Positions 32,844 through 53,694 are shown, counted from the first letter of the stretch. The stretch: 64,000 nt of DNA from a virus (IMGVR_UViG_3300044591_000410:4159-68158), one strand, 5' to 3'. The notes: generated from the letters alone by a model not told the origin. A program made the numbers and translations.

Positions 32844-33160
32844 GGAATCTACCCCGGTAATTGCGGGGTTGGTCCCTAGTGGATATCCTTGGTATCTGTC
32901 ATTATGGCGGTAGAAATCGACTTAGGGGTCGTGGATTTACAACGGGGTATTTGACATAGTGTGGCCGCGCACACCCCCCGCCACCCCCCGTCGATGTCCC
33001 CTAGGGGCATATGCCGGGTCAATCCGAAGCAATCCGAACAATTTGCCTAGGATTCCCATGCTCCGAGTTCATGGGGTATATCTATTGGAATCAGAGGAGT
33101 TTCCCATCAGCGTGATGGTATCCCCTGCTTCTTTCCTAGTGTTCTCGAAAGGAACAAGCG

Positions 33161-33427
33161 ATGTCCAACAAGGATATGGCTGCGGCACTCGCCGCTATCG
33201 TCGCCCTGCTCTCGCAGCAGGGCATCACCGTCCCCACCACCAAGCCCGTGAAGGCGCGCAAGGCCAAGGCGAAGGCCGAGCCGAAGGCCAAGCGCAAGAA
33301 GGGCGCAACCCCCGCTCAACGCGCTCATTACAACTCCATGAAGACCAGCCACCCTTGCCCGTTCCGTCCCGGAATGGTCGAGCGTGAAGCCTACCGCGCA
33401 GCGAAGGCTGCGGGGCTGATTGGCTGA
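33161..33427 (+). CDS. First early gene, small basic K/A-rich protein
   Basis: GAAAGGA SD; GC-rich codons; histone-like 'KARKAKAKAEPKAKRKK'. Confidence 0.8.
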   Translation: MSNKDMAAALAAIVALLSQQGITVPTTKPVKARKAKAKAEPKAKRKKGATPAQRAHYNSMKTSHPCPFRPGMVEREAYRAAKAAGLIG

Positions 33428-33430
33428 TCG

Positions 33431-33485
33431 GGCGACAACTTTGGAGTACCCACCCTACGGGGTGGGACTCTCCTAGGCTGTTGCC
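33431..33485 (+). ncRNA. Conserved cis RNA hairpin motif, copy 1 (cUACGg tetraloop)
   Basis: Core GGAGTA-CCCACC-CTACGG-GGTGGG-ACTCTCC; homologous to 35413-35463 with compensatory changes. Confidence 0.7.
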
Positions 33486-33493
33486 AAGGCTGT

Positions 33494-33523
33494 GCCACAG
33501 CAGAACTGTGGCTGTTTCTTTCT
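33494..33523 (+). terminator. Intrinsic terminator-like hairpin
   Basis: GCCACAG-CAGAA-CTGTGGC followed by TGTTTCTTTCT. Confidence 0.5.
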
Positions 33524-33537
33524 GAAAGGTTTCAAAC

Positions 33538-33654
33538 ATGGGAATCATTCTTGGTACTTTGGCTTTGTTGGGTCTTGCAAGTTTCTTGGCATTTGCAGTC
33601 ATGTGGGACACCATGACCCCGAGCGACCGCCGCAAGGCGGGATTCAAGGACTAA
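33538..33654 (+). CDS. 38-aa early membrane peptide (not in ORF track)
   Basis: GAAAGG SD; MGIILGTLALLGLASFLAFAVMWDTMTPSDRRKAGFKD. Confidence 0.65.
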   Translation: MGIILGTLALLGLASFLAFAVMWDTMTPSDRRKAGFKD

Positions 33655-33660
33655 CATTTC

Positions 33661-33696
33661 ACTCAAGGTAAACCTAACGGTTTGCCTTGGGTTTCT
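33661..33696 (+). other. Intergenic hairpin (terminator or RNase III-type processing site)
   Basis: ACTCAAGGTAAACC-TAAC-GGTTTGCCTTGGGT followed by TTCT. Confidence 0.55.
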
Positions 33697-33763
33697 AGGT
33701 AGCACTTTGCTACCAGCAGCGTCACGGCTGAACCGTGATATTCCTTACAGAAAGGAGACATCC

Positions 33764-34141
33764 ATGAAGGATGTCATCATCGTGACCCGCCATGCGGGTC
33801 TAGTCATTGTCCTCGCAGAGGACTACGGAATTGCGGGGCCAGTCTTGGCCCACGTTACTGCCGCAGATGTACGCGGCAAGGCCGTCGTTGGAGTGCTTCC
33901 GCTGCATTTGGCTGCGGAAGCGAAGTCGGTGACCGAGGTTACCCTGAATCTCCCCCCCGAACTGCGGGGGCAAGAACTCACCATTGAGCAGGTGCGGCAG
34001 CATATGAAGGGACTCCGCACCTATGTGGTGCGAAGCCTTGAAGCCTTCAACCTCAACAACGAAGAGGAGTGGAGGTCGGGGTATGGTGGAAGCATGGGGT
34101 GGGGCTCGATCCCCGACCCCATCGGGAGGAAGTCGAAGTGA
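33764..34141 (+). CDS. Csx16 (Cas_VVA1548)-like protein, candidate cyclic-oligoadenylate ring nuclease / anti-CRISPR
   Basis: 'IIVTRHAG', 'AHV', 'VVGVLPLHLAA', 'LNLPPELRGQELT.E' and 'LRTYVV' follow the Csx16 pattern SRHxG..H..VIGTLPxHLAA..LDLP..LRGxELS; GAAAGGAG SD. Confidence 0.8.
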   Translation: MKDVIIVTRHAGLVIVLAEDYGIAGPVLAHVTAADVRGKAVVGVLPLHLAAEAKSVTEVTLNLPPELRGQELTIEQVRQHMKGLRTYVVRSLEAFNLNNEEEWRSGYGGSMGWGSIPDPIGRKSK

Positions 34142-34452
34142 AGAAGCATCAGCCTTGGGGCAAGGACATCGTTATCATCAAGGTTTACGACCTTGATGCC
34201 GTGCTCCTCTTCGACCGTGCTGTAATCGAAGAGGTAGCAAGGGAAGAGGCGGAGAAGATCGCCTCGACCCTGTTCCCCGGATACAAGGTGCAATGGTGTA
34301 CCCCGTCCGGAAAGACCCTTGGTCAGGTGACTGCCGCACCTGCACCGCAACACAAGTTGCCTGTTTGCCCTTTCTGTGGGCAACTCCTTGTCACCATGCG
34401 TGACGAGGTTGGAGCAAAGTGCGCCATGTGTTTCAGTTGGATCCACGGATGA
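34138..34452 (+). CDS. Early protein with C-terminal Zn ribbon
   Basis: GTG start with GGAGG SD; CPFC...CAMC. Confidence 0.65.
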   Translation: MKKHQPWGKDIVIIKVYDLDAVLLFDRAVIEEVAREEAEKIASTLFPGYKVQWCTPSGKTLGQVTAAPAPQHKLPVCPFCGQLLVTMRDEVGAKCAMCFSWIHG

Positions 34453-34508
34453 TAGCGATTCGTGGACGCAGCACCTCTCGCGCGTAAACATACGCGCGTT
34501 GGTATATG

Positions 34509-34597
34509 GGCTTGATTTGTCCTAGTGGACAACGGCCCACGGCCTCTGCATACGCGCATATGTGTATGCTTATGGCGGCTTGATTTGTCCTAGTGGA
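34509..34597 (+). repeat. Perfect 21-bp direct repeat, candidate promoter or operator
   Basis: GGCTTGATTTGTCCTAGTGGA at 34509-34529 and 34577-34597 in a non-coding gap. Confidence 0.85.
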
Positions 34598-34700
34598 GAT
34601 GCTCACCCCTGCATAGGCGAAGGCTTATGTGGGGGTTTCACCATGCATCAGCGTAGGTGTATGGTTGTTTGGTTTCTTTCTTTATGAAAGGAAGGGGCAA

Positions 34701-35408
34701 ATGAACATCAGCCCCGATATCGTCCAGCAGATCCTCCTCTCCCTCTTGCAGAGTCAGGCTGCTTCTGCCACCACCACCGTGGCTCCCGCTCCTGTGGCTA
34801 CGGCCTCCCCTTCGTGGGTTGACGCAGTCACCGCTGCCTTTCCTGCCATCGTTGGCAGCAACGGCAAGCGCGGGTCGATGAACATCGCGAAGAATCCTTG
34901 CTTCACGGCATCGACAAAGGAAGTTCACGAAGGTGTGAACAACGAGATCGCCAACGGCAAGCCGGGGATTTGGTGCGCCGAGGCTTGCTACCGTGCTGCC
35001 AAGAAGGGCATTGCGGTCAGCGAGTACCTCAAGGCCAAGACTCCGGCTCCTGCCAAGGCTGCAACCCCTTCTCCTACCGTTACGGTGGCGACCATTCCGC
35101 CTGAACTGGCGGCAATGGCCGAGCAGATGGGCTTCACCTTGGTTCCCAAGGCTGATGCTTCCGTGGCTCCCCCTGTCAAGCGCATGAAGGGGCAGGCCCG
35201 TTTGACCTGCCTTCAGACTGCGTTGGCTGCGGCCAAGGCGGGCGAGCGCGGCGCTGCCAAGGTGGAGTTGGTGCAGGTCGGACTCCTCAAGGAGTCTGAC
35301 AAGATGCGTCTTGGCAAGATGATCCCGCTGATCGAAGCGGAGATTGCCAAGATGACCACGGTCAGCAAGGCTCCTCACGCGGGAGTCCCCAACCTGACGG
35401 TGGCCTGA
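34701..35408 (+). CDS. Early A/P/K-rich protein, probable paralogue of 33161-33427
   Basis: GAAAGGAAGG SD; shares SM..PC(P)F..(R/K)PG..EA(C)YRAAK..G motif with the first early gene. Confidence 0.8.
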   Translation: MNISPDIVQQILLSLLQSQAASATTTVAPAPVATASPSWVDAVTAAFPAIVGSNGKRGSMNIAKNPCFTASTKEVHEGVNNEIANGKPGIWCAEACYRAAKKGIAVSEYLKAKTPAPAKAATPSPTVTVATIPPELAAMAEQMGFTLVPKADASVAPPVKRMKGQARLTCLQTALAAAKAGERGAAKVELVQVGLLKESDKMRLGKMIPLIEAEIAKMTTVSKAPHAGVPNLTVA

Positions 35409-35412
35409 ACAT

Positions 35413-35463
35413 CCCGAGTTTCGGAGTATCCCTTCTACGGAAGGGAACTCTCCCAAACTTGGG
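35413..35463 (+). ncRNA. Conserved cis RNA hairpin motif, copy 2 (cUACGg tetraloop)
   Basis: Core GGAGTA-TCCCTT-CTACGG-AAGGGA-ACTCTCC; followed by hairpin TACTAGTAAC-ATACGG-GTTACTAGTA (35465-35490). Confidence 0.7.
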
Positions 35464-35523
35464 GTACTAGTAACATACGGGTTACTAGTATAAGTTAGCA
35501 TCTTCACTAGAAAGGAGAATCAC

Positions 35524-37557
35524 ATGAATCAGAAACTGCTTGAGCAGCAGTTTGTGGGTTGTGTGAACAACGCAGAAGTTGTGATTGCTGGTTTCGCAGA
35601 AGCCCTTGGTAACTTGCGGTTTAGCCGCAAGCCTGCATGGTTCAAGTTCGTGCAGCAGAATACCAACTGGGTGGCGAACGCTACGGTGTATGCCGTCGTT
35701 CGCAATGTTTCGGAACGAGCAACCACCGAAGTTCACGCTGTCATTGCAGACCTTGCGTTTGCAATCCAGCGGGACTGGCAGGTGGATCGTAACGATGCGT
35801 TGACTTGGGCATGGAACATCGTTCACTTGGCTGAACAAGCCGGGTGGGTGACCTTGTACAAGACTTCGGAAATGACCCTCGTCAAGATGACCTCACGCTT
35901 TGCGTTTCAGCTGTATGAGAACAATGCGTGGGGCATGGCGGGTTGTTTCCGTCCACCGATGGTGGAACGACCACGGCCACACCGTGACAGTCGCCCCGGA
36001 GGATACCACAACCCACAGATGCGGCGTGGTATTAGCCACGGATCATGGAAGGAACTTGCGAGTGCGCCTCGCATGATTCTCACCATGAATCGCATGATGT
36101 TCACGAAGTGGCATATCTCGCAAGAGATGTTGTCCATTGCGAAGGAAGTCTTTGCACTTCCTGAAGTGATCGTGGATCATCGTCGTGATCGGTATGGACA
36201 CGACACCACGCTGGCAATGGCCGAGCAGTTCAGCGGTGTGGAGTTCTACAATCCCACCTACGCTGATGTTAGCGGTCGCATTTATTATGAGTGTGACTTG
36301 CTGTCACCGCAGGGCAATGACCTTGCGCGTGGTTTGCTGCATGGAACAGACCATGCCCTTACTGATAAGGGTTGGTTCTGGCTTGCGGTGCATGTGGCAA
36401 ACTCTTTCAGCGGCATCGGTGGCGTTGGTAAACTTGACAAGACTCCTTACAAGGATCGTGTCAAGTGGACACACAAGAACTCCGATACGCTCTGCCTCGT
36501 TGCCGAAGACCCCATGCGTTACATGCATGTGTGGTTCAACGGCATCGGGAAGGGAGCGGGATCATTCCAAGCACTTGCTGCGCTGCTTGCTTGGCGACGA
36601 GCCAAGGACACCGGACGATGCTGTTTGCATGTGAGGTTGGATCAGACAACCTCCAACTACGGCATCAAGGGTGGGCTGCTGCGAGATCAGCAACTGTGCG
36701 AGTTGACCAACATGGTTCCCTCGTCCGAGGTGCAGGATATGCACAGCGTGACGGCTACAAACCTTATGGGTTTGTTGGCTGATTCCGATTATTCGGATTT
36801 CACAACCATGATTGCTGGGACACCGGACAAGCCTAACCGCAAGTTCGTCAAGTCACCCAGCATGGTCAGCGGCTACGGTGGTACGACCCGTGGCATTGCA
36901 CAGTCGTTGTTTGGAAAGCGTGAGTGGGCTTTCCACGACAACAAGTGGAAGAAGGTTGCCGAAGAAGGCAGCATCCCCGACCTTGTGTCTGGTGACGATC
37001 CTCGCCATCAGTTCAAGGTGGCAATGGATATTGCTTCCATGTGTAAGGAAGCAGTAGAAATCACCGCTCCCGGTGCGTTCAAGGTCATGCGTTATCTCAA
37101 GGAGGTTGTCAAGGTTGCCCGTGAGAAGAAGATGGAGAACATTATGTGGTATTCTCCATCAGGCAAACTCATTGTGCTTCATCCTCGTAAGCGGGGTGAG
37201 CAGATGATCGTGGCATCATCCGAGTTTGGTGGTGCTTCACTCAAGTGGCATCCTTGGACTGATGAAACCAACTGGCGTAAGATGGCTACGGCCATCTCTC
37301 CACGATGGATTCAACCCATCGACGCTTCCCTTCTTCACATTGCAGGCAGTATGTTCCGGCATGAGTTTGCCGGGGTGCATGACTGCATCCAATGTCACCC
37401 CAATCAGATGGGGAAGTTTCTTGTGTACATGAGGAAGGCAATGTACATGATTATGGAATCCAATCCTCTTGTCAAGTTCTGTGAGCAGTTCGGCATTACT
37501 GTTGAGCAGGGCGATTGGGATACCAAGGATTGCCTCAAGGCTAATCCTTGGCACTAA
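35524..37557 (+). CDS. Divergent T7-type single-subunit RNA polymerase (RNAP-1, 677 aa)
   Basis: PMV..P...GGY; DVSGRIY..LSPQGNDLARGLL; WLAVHVAN; motif A LDQTTS; motif B RKFVKSPSMVSGYG; ISPRWIQPIDAS; motif C VHDC. Confidence 0.9.
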   Translation: MNQKLLEQQFVGCVNNAEVVIAGFAEALGNLRFSRKPAWFKFVQQNTNWVANATVYAVVRNVSERATTEVHAVIADLAFAIQRDWQVDRNDALTWAWNIVHLAEQAGWVTLYKTSEMTLVKMTSRFAFQLYENNAWGMAGCFRPPMVERPRPHRDSRPGGYHNPQMRRGISHGSWKELASAPRMILTMNRMMFTKWHISQEMLSIAKEVFALPEVIVDHRRDRYGHDTTLAMAEQFSGVEFYNPTYADVSGRIYYECDLLSPQGNDLARGLLHGTDHALTDKGWFWLAVHVANSFSGIGGVGKLDKTPYKDRVKWTHKNSDTLCLVAEDPMRYMHVWFNGIGKGAGSFQALAALLAWRRAKDTGRCCLHVRLDQTTSNYGIKGGLLRDQQLCELTNMVPSSEVQDMHSVTATNLMGLLADSDYSDFTTMIAGTPDKPNRKFVKSPSMVSGYGGTTRGIAQSLFGKREWAFHDNKWKKVAEEGSIPDLVSGDDPRHQFKVAMDIASMCKEAVEITAPGAFKVMRYLKEVVKVAREKKMENIMWYSPSGKLIVLHPRKRGEQMIVASSEFGGASLKWHPWTDETNWRKMATAISPRWIQPIDASLLHIAGSMFRHEFAGVHDCIQCHPNQMGKFLVYMRKAMYMIMESNPLVKFCEQFGITVEQGDWDTKDCLKANPWH

Positions 37558-37572
37558 TATGCTAGGAAAGGT

Positions 37573-37818
37573 TTGATAATGACGCAGACGATGAAGCAGA
37601 TCAAGCAGTTGATTTACTTTCATGCTCCCGATAAGGAGACTTTGGATAGGATGTTGGCGTTTCTTGATGCCAACGATAACTTGATTGCGGCACAGGATCG
37701 GCTTATTGATGCTTATAAGGATAACATCAAGAAGCAAAAGGAAATCATCGAAGCACAGAAAAATCTGTGTGAGATGCAGACGACGCAGATTCGGGTTCTC
37801 TCTGAAAGGAACGCATGA
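37573..37818 (+). CDS. Hypothetical coiled-coil protein
   Basis: GAAAGG SD; start could be a nearby ATG. Confidence 0.65.
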   Translation: MIMTQTMKQIKQLIYFHAPDKETLDRMLAFLDANDNLIAAQDRLIDAYKDNIKKQKEIIEAQKNLCEMQTTQIRVLSERNA

Positions 37819-38045
37819 ACAGCATATTTGTCATTGTAGACAAGCAGGGTAATAAGACCGTGGTTGATAAGGATCATACGGTCTTTATCGTTAGAGAGTC
37901 CGCCTTTATTGATGCGGAATCTAATGATGAACCCATTAGTGACATTCCTTGGTGTGTAGAATATAACCTTGACACTCTTTTGTTTTTGGGTTATAAAGCG
38001 TCTGAGTATCACATCTTTGAAGGAGATTTGAATGTTTGTAAGTAA
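37815..38045 (+). CDS. Hypothetical protein
   Basis: GAAAGGA SD; ATGA overlap. Confidence 0.65.
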   Translation: MNSIFVIVDKQGNKTVVDKDHTVFIVRESAFIDAESNDEPISDIPWCVEYNLDTLLFLGYKASEYHIFEGDLNVCK

Positions 38046-38292
38046 TAATAAAACAGGCGTTACCATTACTTTTGCCAATGGGTGGGAAATCTCTGCCCAA
38101 TGGGGGCAAGGTACTTATAGTGATGGGTATTATGAAGGTGGTAGCCGTTGCCCCAACGCGGAAATTGCCATCTTTGATAACGACGATAACTTTGTTCGTT
38201 ATGCACATCATAAGGATGATGTGATTGGTTATGTAGACCCTAATGACTTTGTTCTGATGTGCGTTTGGGCAATGTCCCAAGAGAGACACTAA
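38032..38292 (+). CDS. Hypothetical phage protein
   Basis: AAGGAG SD; 'TFANGWEISAQWG.GTY...AEIAI..DDVIGY'. Confidence 0.7.
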   Translation: MFVSNNKTGVTITFANGWEISAQWGQGTYSDGYYEGGSRCPNAEIAIFDNDDNFVRYAHHKDDVIGYVDPNDFVLMCVWAMSQERH

Positions 38293-38459
38293 TGAATAAA
38301 GATGGTTTTGTTACCGTTGTGGTTCTTAATGACGGTGAGACTTATACCGACATTACTGGGTGTTCTATTATGGTTGTCCCTGCTGAACAGTATTATAAAG
38401 CTGTTTCTGAAGGCGGGGATGCTAGGGATTTTGAACCTGTTGTAAAGGTAAATCTGTGA
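38292..38459 (+). CDS. Hypothetical protein
   Basis: TAATG overlap; 'VVLNDGETYTDI.GC'. Confidence 0.6.
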   Translation: MNKDGFVTVVVLNDGETYTDITGCSIMVVPAEQYYKAVSEGGDARDFEPVVKVNL

Positions 38460-38532
38460 TTGCCGCAGTAATTCTCTTGGCTTATGCCATCGTCGTTTGT
38501 GTTACCATTCACTCTCTTTGGAAGGACTATTA

Positions 38533-38679
38533 ATGGAAAAGATTATGGAACATTTCAATGCCCTTATGATGGCTGTTGAAGAACGGCATGAAGAGGAAGG
38601 GGATATGACGCATATCCTTACTATGATGTACGCTCTTGGTGATCGTATTATGGAAGCCGATGATGCTAACGCTGACTAA
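38533..38679 (+). CDS. Small acidic hypothetical protein
   Basis: AAGGA SD; D/E/M-rich. Confidence 0.55.
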   Translation: MEKIMEHFNALMMAVEERHEEEGDMTHILTMMYALGDRIMEADDANAD

Positions 38680-39421
38680 ACCTTTTATTTTTGACGGTTC
38701 CCTTTATCTTTATGATGAAGTGTTCTTTGATGAGGAACTAAATCAAGAGGTAGCATTCTATGAGAATCTGCCTTATAATATTCGTACTCAATGTAGTGCG
38801 GGTAGTTGCGCTCTTTTTATCTGGAACAACGCAGAACCTAATAACGACCATCAGTACGGTATTAAAATCTTTGACTATGGTATTGAAGAAAAGTGCAAGC
38901 AAGAGGCTTATAACTCTTTCCTTCGTCAAAAGGCTGCGGCTAGGGAAAGTCTTGCTCCTCCTGCTCACTTTATGATAAAGGTTTACCGTAATGGTAGGAT
39001 GTGCTGGGGTTATACTACCAGCGTAGCCGAAGATACTACTTATGTGTTCTTCCCCGAAGAAGAAGCCGATAATATGTATCAAGATTACGAAGCATCCTTT
39101 AATCTCGATAAGGAATATGCCATTACCAGTCTTTCTAATGTCCTCAAGTGTTACAATCTTACGGATATTCAAGACGATGCTAATGATCTAATGGATAAAC
39201 TCAAAGAATCTGACCCCATGTCTTTTGAAGCATGGCTTTGTTACAATGAGTATAACATTGTAGATGTATACCCACTTAAATGTAAGTTGGAAATGGTTGA
39301 ATTGGTTATTAACGGTGATGTAGTGTATCTTGGCGGCGACTTGCATGGCGGTAACATTGGTTACTATAAGGGTAACCTTGTTTGTGTAGACTTTTCACAC
39401 CACTCACAAGAAGGAGATTAA
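38660..39421 (+). CDS. Protein kinase-like (T7 gp0.7 analogue)
   Basis: 'SAGSCA' Gly loop, 'GIKIF' Lys, helix-C Glu 'QEAY', catalytic loop 'DLHGGNI', 'VDF'. Confidence 0.75.
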   Translation: MMLTLTKPFIFDGSLYLYDEVFFDEELNQEVAFYENLPYNIRTQCSAGSCALFIWNNAEPNNDHQYGIKIFDYGIEEKCKQEAYNSFLRQKAAARESLAPPAHFMIKVYRNGRMCWGYTTSVAEDTTYVFFPEEEADNMYQDYEASFNLDKEYAITSLSNVLKCYNLTDIQDDANDLMDKLKESDPMSFEAWLCYNEYNIVDVYPLKCKLEMVELVINGDVVYLGGDLHGGNIGYYKGNLVCVDFSHHSQEGD

Positions 39422-39423
39422 TA

Positions 39424-39579
39424 ATGAAGTATAATAAGAACGAACTCACGCCTTTCCACCAGCGTATTGCAAGAGCCTATATCAAGGATCTTATTGCAGA
39501 TCCTAATACCTGTGATATCCTTCGCAAGAAGTTGAAGGCTAAGGTTACTAAGAAGAAGGCTAAGAAGGTGCGTGTTTAA
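39424..39579 (+). CDS. Small basic hypothetical protein
   Basis: AAGGAG SD; K-rich C-terminus. Confidence 0.6.
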   Translation: MKYNKNELTPFHQRIARAYIKDLIADPNTCDILRKKLKAKVTKKKAKKVRV

Positions 39580-39588
39580 GGAGAACCT

Positions 39589-39780
39589 GTGAATAACTGG
39601 ATCATTAAGGTATTCTTTTCAGCGGATTTTGAAATCGTGTGGCATAGCGTCTATTGTAAGGACGAGTATATCGACTCGTTCTGCAATTATAACGACGCTG
39701 TTTCTTTCGTGTTGTATAACTCCCGCACTAACCCTGATGGCCGAATGGTCGGGGCTACTGATAGAGTCCCACATGGTTGA
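39589..39780 (+). CDS. Hypothetical protein
   Basis: AAGGAG SD, GTG start. Confidence 0.55.
   Translation: MNNWIIKVFFSADFEIVWHSVYCKDEYIDSFCNYNDAVSFVLYNSRTNPDGRMVGATDRVPHG
39745..39763 (+). promoter_or_regulatory. Putative phage RNAP promoter
   Basis: ATGGTCGGGGCTACTGATA; upstream of the tRNA cluster and RNAP-2. Confidence 0.6.
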
Positions 39781-39943
39781 GATTGTTCCCCTCCCTAAGG
39801 GACAGAGTAAGTTAATTATTAATAAACTAGTATCCCTTATAGTAGAAACCAAGGATCTAGATGCATGGATGCTTGGTTATTCTGCATCGTTCTGCTTCCC
39901 ATATCTAACTAAAGATGAACAACAACTCCTCGACAACGCTTAG
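39773..39943 (+). CDS. Hypothetical protein
   Basis: Fills the gap between overlapping + strand ORFs. Confidence 0.45.
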   Translation: MVEIVPLPKGQSKLIINKLVSLIVETKDLDAWMLGYSASFCFPYLTKDEQQLLDNA

Positions 39944-40157
39944 TGATTACATTTCATTCCTTCGTGAACTGCGTGTTCTTATTCATTGTGAAATGGATCA
40001 AGATCCCGCTATTTCTCCCCGGCAATATGCCGACATTTGGACAGCCGTAGATCTTGCATATGATCTTCTTCTTCAAGATAAGTTTTATGTGACTGCTGAA
40101 GAAGAACAGATTATTGAAGATTGCTTCTGTCGCTTTTATGGAGTAGGTAATGGATAA
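39915..40157 (+). CDS. Hypothetical protein
   Basis: ORF in the compact + strand array. Confidence 0.55.
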   Translation: MNNNSSTTLSDYISFLRELRVLIHCEMDQDPAISPRQYADIWTAVDLAYDLLLQDKFYVTAEEEQIIEDCFCRFYGVGNG

Positions 40158-40266
40158 GTATACCAAAGAAGATCTTAATATGATCTATAGACTCATGTGT
40201 TTGAATAAGTTCTGCGAGGCAATGGATATGCTTTGTGCTTTGATGCATAAACATAACATCAAGTAA
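40150..40266 (+). CDS. 38-aa hypothetical protein (not in ORF track)
   Basis: GGAG SD; MDKYTKEDLNMIYRLMCLNKFCEAMDMLCALMHKHNIK. Confidence 0.45.
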   Translation: MDKYTKEDLNMIYRLMCLNKFCEAMDMLCALMHKHNIK

Positions 40267-40273
40267 TACCTTT

Positions 40274-40346
40274 GCCCCTATAGCTCAGTTGGTAGAGCAG
40301 TAGACTTTTAATCTATCGGTCGTAGGTTCGATCCCTACTGGGGGCA
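40274..40346 (+). tRNA. tRNA-Lys(UUU)
   Basis: GCCCCTA/TGGGGGC acceptor, GCTC/GAGC D-stem, CT-TTT-AA loop, GTAGG-TTCGATC-CCTAC; no encoded CCA. Confidence 0.95.
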
Positions 40347-40351
40347 TTCAC

Positions 40352-40425
40352 AGAAGGGTGGCTGAAATAGATAGAGCGCATGCCTTATAAGCGTGAATAT
40401 GTGGGTGCAACTCCCGCCCCTTCTA
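40352..40425 (+). tRNA. tRNA-Ile(UAU)
   Basis: AGAAGGG/CCCTTCT acceptor, CATGC-CT-TAT-AA-GCGTG anticodon arm, atypical T-loop TGCAACT. Confidence 0.8.
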
Positions 40426-40436
40426 TTAAGTGCCAT

Positions 40437-40510
40437 ATTCCCGTAGCTCAACTGGATAGAGCGTGGCACTTCTAATGCTAAGGTTAGTGGTTCAAGTCCA
40501 CTCGGGAATG
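40437..40510 (+). tRNA. tRNA-Arg(UCU)
   Basis: ATTCCCG/CGGGAAT acceptor, TGGCA-CT-TCT-AA-TGCTA anticodon arm, AGTGG-TTCAAGT-CCACT. Confidence 0.95.
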
Positions 40511-40525
40511 TTCTAAAGGAGATCC

Positions 40526-40849
40526 ATGAATAATATTAACACTACAGCAAGAGATGACTTTGAGTTCTATATAAATGATAGATGTCTCATAGCCCATATT
40601 CATTATGGTATTGATGGCCGTGATTATGGTGACGATGCACCCTGTGATTACGACTACGAGATATTGTGGGTAAGTGAATGGTTTGAAGATGGTTCGGCTG
40701 TTATTTATGACGGCAATAACCCAAGTGAACAGATGTGTGGTCTGTTGTTAACGCTTGGTGGAATGTTTGTTATGCAGTATGGTCATGTATTTAATCAATT
40801 GAAAGGTAATGAACCGGATGGAACCCCAGACAACTACGATGAGTTTTAA
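40526..40849 (+). CDS. Acidic hypothetical protein
   Basis: AAGGAG SD. Confidence 0.65.
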   Translation: MNNINTTARDDFEFYINDRCLIAHIHYGIDGRDYGDDAPCDYDYEILWVSEWFEDGSAVIYDGNNPSEQMCGLLLTLGGMFVMQYGHVFNQLKGNEPDGTPDNYDEF

Positions 40850-41102
40850 AGATATGGTTGATATTGTTACTACTAAGGTGTATGTTATAAGCCTTGCGTC
40901 AGGTGCTAGTGTAGGATACCCTATTCCAAACTTCTCTGGCATCGCTCGTTTTGAAAACAGTTACAATGGTATCAAGACTGTGATTGATGAACTTACTAAG
41001 TTGTACTATAAGGAGTATGAGAATGATGGCATTACTCCCAATCCTCCTAAGTTCACCGTTGAAATCAAGTCTATTGTTCTTGGCGACACTCTTTACAAGT
41101 AA
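40809..41102 (+). CDS. Hypothetical protein
   Basis: + strand ORF; start uncertain. Confidence 0.55.
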   Translation: MNRMEPQTTTMSFKDMVDIVTTKVYVISLASGASVGYPIPNFSGIARFENSYNGIKTVIDELTKLYYKEYENDGITPNPPKFTVEIKSIVLGDTLYK

Positions 41103-41111
41103 AGGAAAATT

Positions 41112-42574: not shown

Positions 42575-42584
42575 ATAAGTAAGG

Positions 42585-42653: not shown

Positions 42654-42673
42654 CCCCTTATTAAAGGAAAACT

Positions 42674-43801: not shown

Positions 43802-46282
43802 ATGCCAAAGATGTGGGACAGACTAACTAAAGAAGAGCAGGAAAGAAAAAAGAACCTGCAAGTTATTGCTGAAGAACATATGTTGGCTGTGTCTGAAAAT
43901 AAGTATTGGGAAGAATATGCTAGAGCACCCGACGAGGGTTATCCTGAACAGTCACTGCTTGATGTGTGTGTCATTCATCTTACGCCAATCTACCAGCAAT
44001 GGATAGATAATGTAGCAGAGAATCGTAAGACCCCGGAATGGGCTTACCCTTTGTTTGCTGTTGGTGCTGCTAAGATGGCAGACATTACTATAAGAGCTTT
44101 GATTCTTGAGTGGTTTAACTCGTCATTCTGGGATCGTAAGCATGAAGGGGATCTGTTCCCCATGCCTACGGCTCAGCATATTAGCCATGTTATTTCAGAC
44201 ATGGTTATTGATATTGTTTCGTATCAGCAGGCCAAGCAACAGTTCAAAGAAGACTGGCTAAAGCAGTCGCACTATCAAAAGAATTGGACTGTTAAACGCT
44301 GCAAGGCTTTTGCTGGTAAGATGAACACACTTACTAAGAAGCAGTTCAGTCGTAAACAACGGGAAGATTTTGGCCATCACATGCTGCGTATTGCAGAGAT
44401 GTCCGACATTGTTAAGATTTATAACCACCGTAAGTTTACTGGTAAGCGTTGGATTGAGCGGGTTCTTGTTGGGTTTACGGATAACATTCTTGCTGAACTC
44501 AATAAGAGACACAACGATATGGTAACTAAAGCAGCAATGCTTTATCGTCCCATGATTGTTCCTCCTGTTGAACACACGGAAACATCTAGTGGTGGTAACC
44601 TGTTGCCTTATATCCGTAAGCCTGTTGTTCAGCGGTTCAAGGATGTTATGTGGGATGAGAATGTAACTCAGAAGAATTCAACGCCTTCTCCTATGGTTAT
44701 TCGTGGGCTGAATGCATTGATGCATACTGAGTGGACAATCAACGACCGTGTTCTTGAGGTGATGGAAAACTTGTTTGTCTCTAATACAAGACAAGCCAAT
44801 CTCCCCGCTTATGACTTCTCTGCCTTTGACTTTGGAGAACCCTATCCAAACGAAGGCACTAAGGAAGAGCAGGCCAAGTGGTGTCAGCGCAAAGAAGAAT
44901 CCTACAGTAACTGGTTCAAAGAAGAACGAGCCAGAGGTCGCATGCTTGTTAGACTACAGCTTGCAAAGGATTTGAAGAAGAATGGTTTCTTCTATCATAT
45001 CTTTACCTGTGACTTTAGAGGACGGGCAAATGCTGCTTGTGATCTTCTATCGCCTCAGGCAAGTGACTTTGATAGAGGTCTTATCCAGTTTGCTGCGGCC
45101 CAACCGCAGTCAATCAAGGGCAAGTATTGGCTTAAGGTTCACCTTGCCAATCTCTTTGACCAAGATAAGGATACCTTTGATAACCGGGTCAAGTGGGTAG
45201 ATGATAACATGGAGATGTTTGAGGCTATCAATAATGACCCGTACGATACCCGTAGTCTTTGGTTGTCGGATAAGAAGAAAAAGAATCCTAGCTTCCAAAG
45301 ACTTGCTGCTATCTTCGACCTTTGCCGTAAGGATAGTATGACTCAGGTTCCTGTTCAAATGGATGGTACTTGTAACGGTATCCAACATTGGGCAGCACTT
45401 ATGAAAGATCCTGTTCTTGCCGAGATGGTTAATCTTATCAAGGTTGACAAGCCAAACGATTGCTACGGTTATGTGGCTGATCTTATGACCGACAGTATGA
45501 AGAAGACTGTTGAAGATGAGAACGCAGATGCCGATAGTAAACAGTGGGCTTCTACTTTCTTGGAACACTGGGGAGGTAAGATCTCCCGTGCTGTTCCCAA
45601 GAGAGCGGTTATGACCGATCCCTATGGTGTTACCTTTTATGGTATTCGCCGTTACTGCAAGACCGAAGGACATCTTGACTGGGTTCCTAAGGAAAAGATA
45701 GCGGGTGCTGTTATGGAACTTGCTACCTTTATTGACAAGGCTTTGAAAGATACCTTGGTCGAGGCAAACAAGGGTAAGGTGTGGCTAAAGAATGTAGCAG
45801 ACATATGCTCAGAACTTGGTCACAGCATGGAGTGGACTACCCCGTGTGGTTTCAAGGTTGTCCACCAGTATTACGAGATACTAACTAGACGATCAATAGC
45901 TAAGTTGTTCAATATGAAAGAGCTTCACTTTGGATCCCCTGATAAGGATACGATTGATAACAGCTCTGTTAACTTGGCTATCTCTCCTAATTATATTCAC
46001 TCATTGGATGCCAGTCATATGTGGTGTACTATCAATGCAATGCTAGACGCAGGCATTGACCAGTTCTCCATGATCCATGACTCGTATGGTTGCTCTGCTC
46101 CATATACTTCACTGATGCGTGAGTATACCAAAGAAGAGTTTATGATGATGCATCAGGACAACCTGCTGCTTAAGCTTAAGAAAGAAATAGAAGCTAAGCT
46201 TAAGATTGAATTGCCAGACTGTCCTATTACTAACAACCTAGATATTGGGTCAGTGCTTGAGGCTGATTACCTGTTTCAGTAA
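43802..46282 (+). CDS. T7-type DNA-dependent RNA polymerase (RNAP-2, canonical)
   Basis: PMIVPP, DFRGR, LSPQASD..RGL, DGTCNGIQH, R...KRAVMT.PYG, ISPNYIHSLDASH, IHDSY, C-terminal DYLFQ. Confidence 0.98.
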   Translation: MPKMWDRLTKEEQERKKNLQVIAEEHMLAVSENKYWEEYARAPDEGYPEQSLLDVCVIHLTPIYQQWIDNVAENRKTPEWAYPLFAVGAAKMADITIRALILEWFNSSFWDRKHEGDLFPMPTAQHISHVISDMVIDIVSYQQAKQQFKEDWLKQSHYQKNWTVKRCKAFAGKMNTLTKKQFSRKQREDFGHHMLRIAEMSDIVKIYNHRKFTGKRWIERVLVGFTDNILAELNKRHNDMVTKAAMLYRPMIVPPVEHTETSSGGNLLPYIRKPVVQRFKDVMWDENVTQKNSTPSPMVIRGLNALMHTEWTINDRVLEVMENLFVSNTRQANLPAYDFSAFDFGEPYPNEGTKEEQAKWCQRKEESYSNWFKEERARGRMLVRLQLAKDLKKNGFFYHIFTCDFRGRANAACDLLSPQASDFDRGLIQFAAAQPQSIKGKYWLKVHLANLFDQDKDTFDNRVKWVDDNMEMFEAINNDPYDTRSLWLSDKKKKNPSFQRLAAIFDLCRKDSMTQVPVQMDGTCNGIQHWAALMKDPVLAEMVNLIKVDKPNDCYGYVADLMTDSMKKTVEDENADADSKQWASTFLEHWGGKISRAVPKRAVMTDPYGVTFYGIRRYCKTEGHLDWVPKEKIAGAVMELATFIDKALKDTLVEANKGKVWLKNVADICSELGHSMEWTTPCGFKVVHQYYEILTRRSIAKLFNMKELHFGSPDKDTIDNSSVNLAISPNYIHSLDASHMWCTINAMLDAGIDQFSMIHDSYGCSAPYTSLMREYTKEEFMMMHQDNLLLKLKKEIEAKLKIELPDCPITNNLDIGSVLEADYLFQ

Positions 46283-50200: not shown

Positions 50201-51899
50201 ACATCCTTGCCCAAAGTGCAAGGCAAATGGTAACGATAAACATAATGATAACTTGGCAGAGTATGAAAAGAATTACTACTGCTTCAAGTGTCAACACTTT
50301 ATTCCCAAGGAAGGACACACTATGCAAGAAGAACCTATTGTTAAAAAAGATTGGAAGCCTATACTTGGGTCAGTTGTAGAGCTTGCTCATCGCCGTGTAG
50401 AAGAAAAAGCTTGTCGCATGTATGGCTATCAGACAGCTGTTATCAATGGTAAGACTGTAGAGATTGCTAACTATTACAGAGATGGGGTACTAGCAGGGCA
50501 GCATCTCCGTGGCCCTAACAAGCAGTTTGCTTGGAAGGGTGAAGCTAAGAATGTAGAACTGTTTGGTCAGCATCTGTGGAAGGGTAACAACAAGCGTCTT
50601 ATTATTACCGAGGGCGAGATTGACTGCATGACAGTTGCTCAACTTATGGGATATACTTGGGCCGTTGTCTCCCTGCCTAATGGCGCTGCTTCGGCAGTCA
50701 AGTCTATCAAAGACAACCTAGAGTTTGTTAACTCTTATAATGAAATCGTGCTATGCTTTGACATGGATGATCCCGGTCAGAAAGCAGCACTAGAGGTAGC
50801 TGAGATTCTACCGCCCGGTAAGTGCAAGATTGCTAAGCTTCCTTTCAAGGACGCTAACGAGTGTCTTGCCAACAACCAAGGCAAGGCTGTGGTGACTGCC
50901 CTATGGGAAGCACAGCCATATTCTCCCGATGAGATTCTTCATGTCTCTCAAATCATCAACACAATGGAAGAACTGGATGCCGTCAGGGTTTATCCTTTCC
51001 CATTCGATGCTTTGTCTGAGTATCTTATCGGCCAACGGTCGGGAGAGATTACACTGTGGGCCAGCGGTACTGGCTCAGGTAAGTCTACTATTCTTCGTGA
51101 ACTTATGATGCACCACTTGGACGAAGGCCGTTCTGTTGGTGCTATCATGTTGGAAGAATCCCCGCAAGAAACAATGGATGATATGATCTCGTTGATTATT
51201 AACAAGCCAGTACGAGCTATCCGTGCATCTCGCATGATGAACGAACTCCGTGTTAAGCTTGGTAAAAATCCCATACATATGAGTATCATTGACAACCTAT
51301 CAGACACAGAGTATGGTCAGGCAAAGGAACATCTCGGTAAGACAAGTTTCTATATTTACGACCATCTCGGTAACAACGCCATGTCCAATCTACTTGCTAG
51401 AATGGAATACATGGCAGTGTCTCTTAAGGTAGATGTCATTGTCCTAGACCATATCACTGCTGCGGCAGCGGGTCTTATGGGCATGTCAGACAAGGATGTT
51501 GATGGTGGTAATTCGGAGCGAATCATTATCGACAACCTTATGAAAGAACTCAGAGCATTGGCTGTCCGAACAGGTGTACACATTGACATTGTGTCACAGC
51601 TCAAGAAGACAGACAAAGCTTATGAGGAGGGTGATCGTATTACGCTACAAGATCTGCGTGGTTCAGGCGCACTTGCTAGCGTACCTAATACAGTTGTAGC
51701 TTTGGAACGCGATAGGCAAAACAGTGATGACCGTATTGCCAATACCACTATGGTTCGTGTTCTCAAGAATAGACTGACTGGTAGAGCAGGTGTTGCGACC
51801 GCGCTCTATTACGATCACAATACAGGTAGACTCACCGAGATTGGGTTTGCCACTAACGATGACGGTGAAGTAGTGTTTGAACCAACCACGGAGGTATGA
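50181..51899 (+). CDS. DNA primase/helicase (T7 gp4-like)
   Basis: Zn finger CPKC..CFKC, TOPRIM 'EGEID' and 'FDMD..G', Walker A 'SGTGSGKST', 'LDHI', 'DLRGSG', 'KNR.TG'. Confidence 0.97.
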   Translation: MSTFIGKHPCPKCKANGNDKHNDNLAEYEKNYYCFKCQHFIPKEGHTMQEEPIVKKDWKPILGSVVELAHRRVEEKACRMYGYQTAVINGKTVEIANYYRDGVLAGQHLRGPNKQFAWKGEAKNVELFGQHLWKGNNKRLIITEGEIDCMTVAQLMGYTWAVVSLPNGAASAVKSIKDNLEFVNSYNEIVLCFDMDDPGQKAALEVAEILPPGKCKIAKLPFKDANECLANNQGKAVVTALWEAQPYSPDEILHVSQIINTMEELDAVRVYPFPFDALSEYLIGQRSGEITLWASGTGSGKSTILRELMMHHLDEGRSVGAIMLEESPQETMDDMISLIINKPVRAIRASRMMNELRVKLGKNPIHMSIIDNLSDTEYGQAKEHLGKTSFYIYDHLGNNAMSNLLARMEYMAVSLKVDVIVLDHITAAAAGLMGMSDKDVDGGNSERIIIDNLMKELRALAVRTGVHIDIVSQLKKTDKAYEEGDRITLQDLRGSGALASVPNTVVALERDRQNSDDRIANTTMVRVLKNRLTGRAGVATALYYDHNTGRLTEIGFATNDDGEVVFEPTTEV

Positions 51900-51900
51900 T

Positions 51901-53607
51901 ATGATTAGACTAGTGATTGATATTGAAGCAGACGGCTTGGGAGAAGTTACTCTTACAAACAAGGGGCCAACCAAGGAAGTCTCAACTATCTGGTGCGCTG
52001 TCGTTATGAACGCAGACACTCAGGAAGTCAAGACATTCACTCAGTCTAACATGCACACACTGGTTGATTATCTAAACACTGCTGATCTAATCATCGGCCA
52101 TAACATTCTATCCTTTGATATCCCCGTAATCAGAAGACTTCTTGGCAACCTTAAGCGACCAAAGCATGGGTTCTTCGATACACTAGTGGTATCTAGGATA
52201 ATGTATCCAGACCGTAATAACCACCCCTTAGGCGGCAACTCTCTAGAGTGCTGGGGAAAGTATCTAGGCAATCACAAGATTGACTATACTGGAGGCTGGT
52301 CTGAGTTTTCAGATGAGATGCTTGAGTATTGTATTCAAGATGTAAAACTTGGCTGCAATATCTTCCGGCATCAATCTAAGTTTGCCAAAGAGAATCTAAA
52401 GGTATTCCAGTTTGAACACATGGTATCCGAGATTCTTGCACAGCAAACCGAGCGAGGTTTTGGTTACGATATTGTCAATGGGGAAAAACTATATGTCTCT
52501 CTACTACAGGAGAAAGCTGAGCTGGAGGATAGGATGAGGGCTATATTCCCCGACAAGATTCATTACCGCAAGTCTGAGAAGACAGGTAAGGATCTCAAAC
52601 CAAAGATCGAAACCTTCAACCCCGGTTCTCGTAAGCAGATTGCAGAGCGTCTATCAGAAAAGTATGGATGGGTTCCACCCGAAACTGACAAGGGTAATCC
52701 CAAGGTAGACGAGTCTGTGCTAGCTGCTCTAGATTATCCAGAAGCAAAAGAACTGGTCAAGTACTTTGATCTAGTCAAGCTTATGGGTATGGTAGAAGAT
52801 TGGAACAGCAGGGCATCAAGTTCCCGTGACAGTAACATTCACGGTTATGTAAATGCTCAGGGTGCAGCTACAGGTAGATGCACCCACAGCGAACCCAACA
52901 TTGCACAGGTGAGTGGCGACCACCGTGCCAGAGAACTGTGGATTCCATACGAAGGCTATGTACAGCTAGGTTCTGACCTATCTGGTCTTGAACTCCGAAT
53001 GCTTGCACACTTCATGCACAAGTATGACAATGGCAAATATGCCGATGTTCTCCTTAACGGTGACATTCATACTTATAATCAGAAGGCAGCAGGCATTGAG
53101 TCAAGAGCACTTGCTAAGTCTTTTATCTATGCATATCTCTATGGAGCGGGTGATAAAAAGATTTCTCTAGTACTTAATTGCAGCGTGAATCAGGCCGCTA
53201 GGCTACGGGACAAGTTCCAAAAGGAGATTCCTGCGCTTGCCAAAGTACAAGAGGAAGTGAGATATCATGCACTAAAGCACAACGCAGTCATCTTGCCCGA
53301 TGGTCGCAAGGTTCCAGTTAGGTCAGAACATGCTGCGCTCAATACGCTACTACAGGGTAGTGGCGCTATCGTAAGCAAGTACTGGATGGTTCTTGCTAAT
53401 CACAAACTGAACAAGCTTTACCCCGGTAAGGCCCATCAGATGGCTTATGTACACGACGAACTACAGTATGCAGTTTGTCCTACAGAAGCCGACAACATTG
53501 GTAAGCTAGTCACATCCTGCGCCACAGACGCAGGGGAACGGCTGGCTATTAATATACCTATCGCAGCTGAGTATAAGATCGGTAAGAACTGGTCTGAGAC
53601 TCACTGA
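51901..53607 (+). CDS. Family A DNA polymerase (T7 gp5-like, Tyr762 type)
   Basis: Exo I 'DIEAD', 'GHNI..FD', 'YC.QDV'; 'DLSGLELR', 'AKSFIYAYLYGAG', 'VHDE'. Confidence 0.97.
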   Translation: MIRLVIDIEADGLGEVTLTNKGPTKEVSTIWCAVVMNADTQEVKTFTQSNMHTLVDYLNTADLIIGHNILSFDIPVIRRLLGNLKRPKHGFFDTLVVSRIMYPDRNNHPLGGNSLECWGKYLGNHKIDYTGGWSEFSDEMLEYCIQDVKLGCNIFRHQSKFAKENLKVFQFEHMVSEILAQQTERGFGYDIVNGEKLYVSLLQEKAELEDRMRAIFPDKIHYRKSEKTGKDLKPKIETFNPGSRKQIAERLSEKYGWVPPETDKGNPKVDESVLAALDYPEAKELVKYFDLVKLMGMVEDWNSRASSSRDSNIHGYVNAQGAATGRCTHSEPNIAQVSGDHRARELWIPYEGYVQLGSDLSGLELRMLAHFMHKYDNGKYADVLLNGDIHTYNQKAAGIESRALAKSFIYAYLYGAGDKKISLVLNCSVNQAARLRDKFQKEIPALAKVQEEVRYHALKHNAVILPDGRKVPVRSEHAALNTLLQGSGAIVSKYWMVLANHKLNKLYPGKAHQMAYVHDELQYAVCPTEADNIGKLVTSCATDAGERLAINIPIAAEYKIGKNWSETH

Positions 53608-53612
53608 GGTAT

Positions 53613-53694
53613 GGCTCCGTGGCGGAACAGGCAGACGCAGTGGACTTAAAATCCGCCGCCTAACGGCATGGGGGTTCGATTCCCCCCGGAGCTA
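53613..53694 (+). tRNA. tRNA-Leu(UAA)
   Basis: GGCTCCG/CGGAGCT acceptor, GTGGA-CT-TAA-AA-TCCGC anticodon arm, long variable arm, GGGGG-TTCGATT-CCCCC. Confidence 0.95.

Follow-up and report, generated by a model that had tools for sequence, protein, structure and literature searches.

IMGVR_UViG_3300044591_000410 is an uncultured, T7-like lake phage from a clade that is abundant and uncultured in lakes, and the window analysed here comprises 64,000 nucleotides (bases 4159-68158 of the 68,158-base IMG/VR record). The genome unit of ~66.6 kb has a GC content of 41.5% and features a GC-rich early block in which the codons AAA, ATA, AGA and TTA (hereafter, the four codons) are close to absent, a late region in which they are frequent, and four transfer RNA (tRNA) genes reading precisely these codons, located past the early block and ahead of the genes that use them. 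Here, we describe this codon gradient, its conservation in related phages and the explanations that have to be weighed for it.

Gene order and tRNA genes

The gene set of this genome (G000) includes 70 hand-checked plus-strand genes, called by open reading frame (ORF), frame-specific GC and ribosome sites and counting both major capsid variants at the contig ends, and the order of expression was taken from the T7-like layout alone. Every recognisable gene resides on the plus strand in T7 order, with the T7-type RNA polymerase (RNAP), replication and structural modules collinear. At the early end, the GC-rich block with a 677-aa single-subunit RNAP (RNAP1) is followed by small genes together with three tRNAs, and by a DUF932 gene. 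The map continues with an 826-aa second RNAP (RNAP2), a metallophosphoesterase, a gp2.5-like single-stranded DNA-binding protein (SSB), thymidylate synthase, a primase-helicase including a Helic-prim_T7_N domain, and DNA polymerase, and then with the fourth tRNA, deoxynucleoside monophosphate (dNMP) kinase, exonuclease, dUTPase and ribonucleotide reductase. The late genes encode portal, scaffold, capsid, tail tubular A and B, a 1656-aa protein, terminase, a gp14-like protein and proteins of 1205 and 4267 aa. The features along the window, with GC3 denoting GC at third codon positions (GC1 and GC2 likewise), are as follows.

32665-33160, plus strand: non-coding stretch from the end of the 4267-aa gene to the first early gene, no ORF chosen
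33161-37557, plus strand: GC-rich early block, six genes in 4.4 kb, GC 0.54-0.57 per kb
33161-33427, 33538-33654 and 34138-34452, plus strand: small ORFs of the early block, identified solely from frame, GC3 and a ribosome site of the GAAAGG type
33764-34141, plus strand: Csx16/Cas_VVA1548-like gene (Pfam Cas_VVA1548, 4.4e-17)
34701-35408, plus strand: early gene, upstream neighbour of RNAP1
35524-37557, plus strand: RNAP1 (Pfam RNA_pol, 1.7e-30)
37579-40157, plus strand: nine small genes from RNAP1 to the tRNA cluster, AT-rich yet poor in the four codons
40273-40347, plus strand: tRNA-Lys(UUU) (ARAGORN; Rfam RF00005, 74.6 bits)
40352-40425, plus strand: tRNA-Ile(UAU) (ARAGORN; Rfam RF00005, 51.0 bits)
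40436-40511, plus strand: tRNA-Arg(UCU) (ARAGORN; Rfam RF00005, 65.3 bits)
41576-42574, plus strand: DUF932 gene (Pfam DUF932, 1e-33), downstream of the tRNA cluster
43802-46282, plus strand: RNAP2, the clade-wide T7-type RNAP (PHROG 414, 9.9e-147; Pfam RNA_pol, 2e-84)
53612-53695, plus strand: tRNA-Leu(UAA) (ARAGORN; Rfam, 52.6 bits), 84 nt, long variable arm, downstream of the DNA polymerase gene
58693-64000, plus strand: start of the late module, with portal (59039-60667), scaffold (61433-62389) and major capsid (62549-63772); PHROG 449, 1052 and 267
1-32664, plus strand: rest of the late module, with tail tubular B ending at 967, the 1656-aa protein and the 1205-aa protein; matches include PHROG 457 and 38
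12344-14032, plus strand: terminase
14526-15206, plus strand: gp14-like gene (Pfam T7_gp14 just under the cutoff, 26.4 vs 27 bits)
19861-32664, plus strand: gene of the 4267-aa protein

ARAGORN and Rfam agree on exactly four tRNAs, which as in T4-type compensation are genuine tRNA genes (RF00005 51-75 bits against a gathering score of 29) with cognate codons over-used late; nothing else scored above that threshold. An original prediction, made from the sequence alone, had assigned these tRNAs to AAA, AUA, AGA and UUA and placed three of them between the two RNAP genes. Both programs and the gene map bear this out, the three being those for Lys, Ile and Arg and both RNAPs being of the single-subunit kind. 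In tblastn searches of 50,697 phage records, RNAP2, RNAP1 and portal reached at most 32% identity to cultured phages and the protein at 34701-35408 had no match; given this low identity, no family-level placement is claimed. The gene at 38636-39421 had no family match in Pfam or PHROG.

The non-coding stretch at 32665-33160, where GC steps from 0.35 (32665-32800) to 0.53 (32801-33160), is probably the physical genome end and the early promoter region. One sigma-70-like site lies at 32734-32761, and such sites were not enriched overall (22 vs 17.6 +/- 5.1 in shuffles). A repeat search for a promoter shared across the GC boundary gave weak families only, several of them within coding regions, which were not used.

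The late module runs on from the record end into the start of the contig and the window. The record end repeats the record start imperfectly, with a second major capsid variant followed by codons 1-26 of tail tubular A, whose 26 residues are identical to the N-terminus of a 222-aa ORF near the contig start. Since this end repeat starts with a variant capsid, the assembly has closed on itself across a strain-variable gene; the diverged major capsid copies lie at window positions 62549-64000 and at contig bases 1-2153, upstream of the window. The circular or concatemeric assembly was closed across this capsid variant and was therefore classed as linear by IMG/VR.

The codon gradient and base composition

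Use of the four codons rises along the gene order, from 2.4 per 1000 codons in the early block (1261 codons) to 32 between the end of RNAP1 and RNAP2 (1873 codons), 53 from RNAP2 to portal (4950 codons) and 104 in the late class (13546 codons). Within the early block, AAA accounts for 3 of 88 Lys codons, while ATA (0/58 Ile), AGA (0/65 Arg) and TTA (0/95 Leu) are the sole sense codons missing, each of them with a cognate phage tRNA. The block prefers AAG (97%), ATC (59%) and CGT+CGC (66%), with TTA, CTA, ATA and AGA near zero, and its GC1, GC2 and GC3 are 0.58, 0.45 and 0.66. In late genes, the respective shares are 0.56 for AAA (504/904), 0.22 for ATA (174/790), 0.53 for AGA (318/602) and 0.33 for TTA (407/1248), and the heaviest users are the genes at 16233-19850 (162 per 1000) and 19861-32664 (133 per 1000). 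A shift from GC-rich early genes to late genes rich in these codons was thus correctly anticipated, including the sampled G+C counts of 40/60 at 33241-33300 and 15/60 at 24361-24420, both of which are exact.

The middle genes had been expected to avoid the four codons as well, which holds in part. DUF932, at a GC3 of 0.46, includes a single one among 72 Lys, Ile, Arg and Leu codons (AAA 1/18, ATA 0/16, AGA 0/17, TTA 0/21), and the small genes at 37579-40157 range from 0 to 97 per 1000 per gene at GC3 values of 0.29-0.59. RNAP2, however, is the first long gene using AAA (15/69), ATA (7/44) and AGA (13/39), with TTA at 0/65, and in the middle genes past RNAP2 AAA already makes up 31% of Lys and AGA 32% of Arg codons, TTA alone being rare (16/395).

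The gradient is not explained by base composition alone. In the early block, AAA (3/88) is depleted relative to GAA+CAA (40/110; Fisher p=3e-9), ATA (0) relative to ATT (24) when compared with four-fold A- vs T-ending codons (89:157; p=5e-5), and TTA (0) relative to TTG (25; p=6e-5); AGA vs AGG (0/5) is not significant on its own. The depletion is frame-specific, with in-frame vs out-of-frame counts of 0 vs 12 for ATA, 0 vs 51 for AGA and 0 vs 20 for TTA, and the early-to-late shift amounts to 0.39 in GC3 and only 0.08 in GC1 and 0.04 in GC2. Across 64 of the 70 genes (6 with fewer than 15 Lys, Ile, Arg and Leu codons were left out), the four-codon share correlates with the distance of a gene from the left end (Spearman rho 0.72), and a partial correlation persists when GC3 of the other codons is removed (r 0.63, p=2.5e-8). 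A logistic model of six genomes, adjusted for genome and for GC3 of the other codons and leaving out the fragmentary relative G007, gave pre-RNAP2 vs late odds ratios of 0.47 for AAA (z -5.6), 0.65 for ATA (z -2.4), 0.43 for AGA (z -5.7) and 0.46 for TTA (z -5.6), and the positional trend thus survives correction for GC. CAA, GCA and GGA were not depleted early in this model. The trend is real and both codon- and frame-specific, yet it is not exclusive to tRNA-matched codons.

These results bear on the idea that the first-entering DNA must itself be GC-rich, for example so that the host polymerase can transcribe it while it escapes proteins that silence AT-rich foreign DNA, or so that it escapes AT-rich restriction sites, with codon usage as a side effect. 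Non-coding DNA of the early block is indeed richer in GC (0.50-0.53) than that elsewhere (0.36-0.47), the GC step starts ~360 bases ahead of the first gene, and relatives show their bump at the same map position. However, the shift is mostly in third positions, GAA persists where AAA is purged, out-of-frame copies of the four trinucleotides are tolerated, the genes at 37579-43683 are AT-rich yet avoid the codons, and a keyword literature search found nothing linking xenogeneic silencing to phage early genes. We consider such selection at the DNA or transcription level very unlikely.

The sharp GC steps at ~32.8 kb and ~37.5 kb could also suggest that a GC-rich foreign fragment was fused with an AT-rich phage near 32.95 kb, and one contig that is 93-98% identical (L002) begins only at 38645. 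Independent contigs nevertheless span the junctions and refute such a chimera, leaving it a negligible chance. A 33.5 kb Logan contig from a possible source sample covers 31800-39000 with zero differences; in three separate runs, the left junction is bridged by X6 record 16 (32053-33298) and the right one by X13 record 13 (35380-37680) and X7 record 26 (37306-37740). Three contigs from other metagenome records, L108 (27.8 kb), L109 (22.1 kb) and L110 (48.0 kb), connect the giant gene, the block and the AT-rich middle genes at 93-98% identity and, like X6 record 16, cross 32665-33160, and the same layout recurs in the diverged lineages G007, L115 and L116. All 24 listed sequencing runs are DNA, with 0 RNA runs on record, and four were examined as Logan contigs. 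X6, X7 and X13 have no cover around 33.97-34.45 kb; their joints show that the stretch is replaced or skipped there, so that the gap reflects strain variation rather than absence of the phage. Likewise, since 33535-34505 is replaced or skipped in other samples, the block is strain-variable and not misassembled.

Conservation in relatives and the position of tRNA-Leu

A search with RNAP2 retrieved 41 viral loci at 50-99% identity and one at 27%. The relatives analysed include five genomes of 65-67 kb (G001-G005) and a 39.8 kb fragment (G007), with genes called as greedy plus-strand ORFs of at least 45 aa rather than by a gene finder. Each relative genome examined has a GC bump straight after the giant gene. 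Across the six complete genomes, the four codons amount to 17-46 per 1000 before the tRNAs, 27-58 from there to RNAP2, 51-97 in middle genes and 68-131 in late genes, and in all six the pre-RNAP2 genes are poorer in them than either the middle or the late genes. G002, G003 and G004 depart from a strictly monotonic rise, which is weakest in G003 (46, 51, 75 and 74); late-gene GC3 is 0.20-0.39, with 0.27 in G000. The tRNAs Lys-UUU, Ile-UAU, Arg-UCU and Leu-UAA are each found in six of seven genomes. With Gln-UUG in G005 and Glu-UUC and Asn-GUU in G007 as additional tRNAs, the repertoire of the clade is that of U34 tRNAs of split purine-ending boxes, except for Asn-GUU and Ile-AAU.

DUF932 orthologues avoid the four codons throughout the six genomes with full counts, at GC3 values of 0.33-0.46 and even at 0.33-0.36. 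In the order AAA, ATA, AGA and TTA, the counts are 0/25, 0/20, 0/8 and 0/19 in G001; 1/22, 0/17, 0/12 and 2/27 in G002; 1/22, 0/16, 0/12 and 1/28 in G004; 0/19, 0/15, 2/15 and 1/24 in G005; and 0/20, 0/14, 1/22 and 0/21 in G007. This avoidance suggests very early or very high expression of DUF932.

The early proteins themselves are far less conserved, those at 33161-35408 having no homologue in G001-G005, where RNAP1 matches the RNAP2 gene alone (~25%). The shorter early-block T7-type RNAP (35524-37557; G007 3363-5474; L107-L124) is present only in some lineages, namely the G000 group, a 74-75% group and the G007 group, while G001-G005 carry RNAP2 only. As a single query RNAP1 retrieved no viral contig, whereas an RNAP1 alignment query did. 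GC3 values in G007 are 0.56 for the RNAP1 orthologue (41% identical) and 0.70 for the gene just upstream of it (28%), against 0.26 for RNAP2 of that genome (69% identical); the orthologue has ATA at 0/33 and TTA at 0/52, and the neighbour has none of the four codons. Among 18 RNAP1-like metagenome loci, 15 have a GC3 of 0.53-0.62 and zero ATA.

The patchy distribution of early genes could point to a mosaic origin, in which early genes keep being replaced from a GC-rich pool (the host or its other phages) and carry donor codon usage with no selection involved. In keeping with this, the proteins at 33161-35408 are absent from G001-G005, the segment 33535-34505 varies by replacement or omission in other lake samples and in L108 and L109, GC1, GC2, amino-acid make-up and non-coding DNA are shifted as well, and G003 has a second GC-rich island with a tailspike resembling LKA1 gp49. 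Against this, G000 and G007 share synteny of RNAP1 and the gene upstream of it, which are GC-rich in both genomes at identities of 41% and 28%, RNAP1 lineages at 98-99%, 74-75% and 40-41% identity all keep a GC3 of 0.53-0.62, genes found throughout the clade, DUF932 among them, avoid the codons at a GC3 of 0.33-0.46, and the avoidance is frame-specific. Because synonymous sites are saturated at 41% protein identity, the high GC3 represents an equilibrium under selection and not the remnant of a recent transfer, and a mosaic origin is decidedly unlikely.

The G003 island itself (51-58% GC; L068 reverse-complement 2393-7750) holds two ORFs of ~870 aa, one of them sharing 32% identity with gp49, the tailspike of Pseudomonas phage LKA1, and on this similarity it looks like a horizontally acquired receptor-binding module.

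The distribution of TTA differs from that of the other three codons. In G000, TTA is found in 0/95 Leu codons of the early block, 21/546 of the middle genes and 407/1248 of the late genes; upstream of tRNA-Leu, from RNAP2 to DNA polymerase, it makes up 5/243 Leu codons, and past that tRNA gene 11/152 in the rest of the middle genes. G000 and its 87-99% relatives carry a long-arm Leu(UAA) after DNA polymerase and have 0-1 TTA among 64-65 Leu codons of RNAP2. In lineages with a short Leu(UAA) upstream of RNAP2, the corresponding counts are 8-25 of 63-77, and in those whose short Leu tRNA has the anticodon CAA they are 0-4 of 38-62. In middle genes, TTA shares are 0.05 (G000), 0.12 (G001, with CAA) and 0.19 (G002 and G004, with UAA ahead of RNAP2); at similar GC3, these differ with p values of 1e-10 to 6e-3, while late shares are alike (0.27-0.33). 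Many of these TTA loci are near-duplicates, and they represent ~8 independent lineages.

The short tRNA-Leu (73-75 nt), which lacks the long variable arm, occurs in G001 (L048:5790-5864, minus strand), G002 (L053:15344-15417), G003, G004 and G007; its anticodon is UAA, except for CAA in the G001 lineage, and G000 and G005 have a normal Leu(UAA) of 84-85 nt. Type I tRNA-Leu is described as uncommon in bacteria (PMC6614811).

Timing, expression level and tRNA supply

Two contrasts within the genomes help to separate timing from expression level. RNAP1 and RNAP2 are enzymes of the same kind in one genome with 4 and 42 of the four codons per 1000, respectively, which favours timing over enzyme abundance. 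The major capsid gene, on the other hand, is poor in the four codons in 4/4 genomes (5-15 per 1000, with 70-107 for other late genes); in G000, 6 of its 406 codons are among the four, against 107 per 1000 in other late genes. The avoidance in capsid and DUF932 implies that these codons are still costly late, which fits compensation and argues against a delaying gate. Timing and expression level both appear to act.

We therefore favour, with a probability of about 0.6, tRNA compensation with a temporal constraint, that is, selection against host-poor codons on an AT-biased background. The phage lineage would sit at an AT-rich composition in a host that probably reads AAA, AUA, AGA and UUA poorly. 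As the A-ending codons of split boxes, each of the four would need a dedicated U34 tRNA, and the phage, provided that its tRNAs are made and charged, would supply tRNAs for precisely these codons. Selection may be strongest in genes translated before the phage tRNAs accumulate, namely the left-end block and the small pre-RNAP2 genes, and in genes that are very highly expressed at any time, such as major capsid, DUF932 and the gp2.5-like SSB. It may be weakest in the huge, low-copy internal virion proteins, which could drift to the AT-rich optimum and rely on the phage tRNAs. The GC-rich early block would then be mainly a by-product of codon-level selection, kept over long divergence.

The original prediction had gone further, proposing that phage-supplied tRNAs gate late translation and could act as a translational timer. 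In its full form, such a timer would use the codons of RNAP2 and of the late genes to delay their translation for as long as phage tRNAs are scarce; in G000, the separately placed tRNA-Leu(UAA) would set a second, TTA-based tier resembling bldA. This is consistent with the tRNA cluster lying between the early block and RNAP2 in G000-G005 and G007, with the climb of TTA in G000 from early genes through middle genes and those past tRNA-Leu to late genes, and with RNAP2 having 8-25 TTA of 63-77 Leu codons under an upstream Leu-UAA and 0-4 of 38-65 otherwise (downstream of DNA polymerase, or CAA). A gate would, however, not spare its main cargo, and the major capsid, the most abundant late product and the one needed most late, avoids the codons. 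The rise is gradual with no step, and G001, whose Leu tRNA has the anticodon CAA and which has no UAA reader, still uses TTA for 29% of late Leu codons. L036 and L040 violate the position rule, their tRNA cluster lying downstream of RNAP2 although RNAP2 has TTA at 27/78 and 10/74. Unlike in bldA regulation, the 407 TTA codons are spread over nearly all late genes and are not confined to a few regulatory targets, and a T7-type cascade already times late genes via transcription and DNA entry. A true timer is thus unlikely.

The specific form in which the clade runs a two-tier, tRNA-timed translation programme written in gene order, with early genes free of the phage-served codons, the Lys/Ile/Arg cluster licensing RNAP2 and the replication genes, tRNA-Leu(UAA) licensing the TTA-rich virion genes in the G000 lineage, and TTA in orthologous middle genes following the position and anticodon of tRNA-Leu, is likewise doubtful. 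If true, it would give phages an equivalent of bldA and provide the first instance of a moved or mutated phage tRNA gene visibly re-tuning downstream codon use. The covariation of TTA with tRNA-Leu is the part most worth following. One lineage with a relocated tRNA-Leu gene and another with an altered anticodon are natural variants that could address whether tRNAs shape or follow codon use.

Host-independent supply would explain the tRNAs differently. If host DNA were destroyed and the tRNA pool depleted by turnover, the tRNAs would match the phage's own split-box codons regardless of host GC. AAA, TTA and AGA are among the seven codons with the largest late-minus-early rise, and this model is favoured for Shigella phage Sf14 (PMC12482277). 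It leaves the early purge to zero and the capsid avoidance unexplained, and no host-DNA nuclease was identified in the genome, the sole find being an exonuclease of PHROG 107; we regard it as highly unlikely.

Several observations nevertheless weigh against compensation, beginning with the late TTA of G001 and the RNAP2 genes of L036 and L040 noted above. CTA rises from 1/95 Leu codons in the early block to 27% of Leu in middle and late genes, with no tRNA-Leu(UAG) found for it by ARAGORN or the Rfam scan of the window, and in the six-genome model other unserved codons are depleted before RNAP2 too (CCA 0.39, ACA 0.54, CTA 0.58 and TCA 0.65). An exact match between tRNAs and shifted codons is therefore too strong a claim: the sense codons absent early are all served by a phage tRNA, and a shift of equal size is seen in CTA, CCA and ACA, which have none. 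As given above, the high GC of the block extends to its non-coding DNA, and the share of Gly+Ala+Arg+Pro residues is 0.295 in the block against 0.19-0.24 elsewhere. Three of the 18 RNAP1-like genes (L121, L123 and L124) are relaxed. The ORF-based gene calls in the relatives are a limit of method, and spurious ORFs there would blur an early depletion rather than create it.

The original prediction also proposed a high-GC host, and a host more GC-rich than the phage is probable. A GC-richer host with poor supply for these codons is favoured because of the early-block preferences, the GC-rich tailspike island of G003 and the precedent of phage Syn9. An alignment of RNAP2 against 185,579 species representatives retrieved one locus (L069), in a fragmented metagenome bin of 4.2 Mb (G006; contigs C43 and C175), which is the only hint on the host and points the other way. 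This bin includes a 20 kb clade contig with an RNAP2 69% identical, and a second contig of 38% GC with tRNA-Arg(UCU), Ile(UAU), Thr and Glu. The phage-like contigs are compositional outliers (38-40%), and other sampled loci of the bin have a GC of 25-34%; if this low-GC genome were the true host, the whole premise of compensation would fail, so these values also count against it. G006 was not accepted as the host, as binning is weak evidence and the phage contigs are outliers in GC, and the phage-like contigs are probably phage DNA binned with an unrelated genome. An Atlas look-up of the Csx16-like protein returned viral clusters only and no host lead. The short tRNA-Leu of the relatives resembles that of phages with many hosts (62 records), including 24 phages of Mycobacterium, Streptomyces and Rhodococcus as well as cyanophages and phages of Myxococcus, Acinetobacter, Pseudomonas and Lactobacillus; no host was concluded from this, as actinophages are over-represented in that collection. 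The early block provides a handle on the host from sequence only, predicting a preference for AAG, ATC, CGY and CTN/TTG.

Time-dependent codon usage and the tRNAs of phage T4 were reportedly treated by Cowe and Sharp in 1991 and by Kunisawa in 1992. T4 is virulent and more AT-rich than its host prefers, and has tRNAs for A-ending codons, including AGA, AUA and UUA, that are commoner in late genes. The present phage resembles T4 in being AT-rich, in carrying tRNAs for A-ending codons and in using these codons more in late genes. T4, however, has eight tRNAs in 169 kb and no sharply bounded GC-rich early island, whereas this is a T7-like podophage with four split-box tRNAs and an early block at zero for three codons. 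Time-dependent codon use and tRNAs for A-ending codons are thus known, and the genome described here is an unusually clean and conserved example.

Neither this clade nor an early block both rich in GC and purged of codons turned up in keyword searches of open-access text. In Syn9, a cyanophage of 40.5% GC, too little Leu-TAA tRNA in Synechococcus of 66% GC blocks translation of key genes (PMC11726456). That system is similar in combining a tRNA-carrying phage of ~40% GC, hosts of 59-66% GC and a decisive UUA-reading tRNA. It differs in being a T4-like myovirus with a known host and experiments, whereas the present phage is known from its sequence, and in having codon mismatches "even for early genes" in one host, whereas early genes are purged here. 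Early/late codon differences were reported for half of 14 phages (Mioduser, Goz and Tuller 2017, PMC5683454), and the tRNAs of Shigella phage Sf14 were proposed to serve late structural genes (PMC12482277). Those are statistical tendencies, whereas the contrast here is extreme (2.4 vs 104 per 1000), mapped over the genome, replicated in seven related uncultured genomes and also coupled to the placement and the anticodon of a single tRNA gene. With bldA, the phage shares a rare UUA read by a single tRNA-Leu(UAA), absent early and present later (PMC2000904 and PMC6614811), as seen in the TTA counts of the early block (0/95) and the middle genes (21/546). bldA works via a few regulatory genes of Streptomyces development, whereas here a third of late Leu codons are involved and the tRNA is owned by the phage. 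The early purge, the polymerase paralogues with opposite codon usage and the non-homologous early genes together separate expression time from expression level, two components that are hard to separate in model phages.

Additional features of the genome include a 76-aa ORF at 11980-12210, just upstream of terminase, with a weak DNA_Packaging_2 match under the Pfam cutoff; it forms a local GC3 peak (0.65) within the AT-rich late region, as does its G001 orthologue (0.55). An insertion of ~100-110 bases at 37559-37565, between RNAP1 and the next gene, is present in X6, X7 and X13 and in L107-L109. The strain-variable early slot at 33535-34505 holds a cassette of a 38-aa ORF, the Csx16/Cas_VVA1548-like gene and a 104-aa ORF, which is replaced by ~265 bases in X6 and X13, skipped in X7 and replaced by ~610 bases in L108 and L109, and this slot possibly serves counter-defence.

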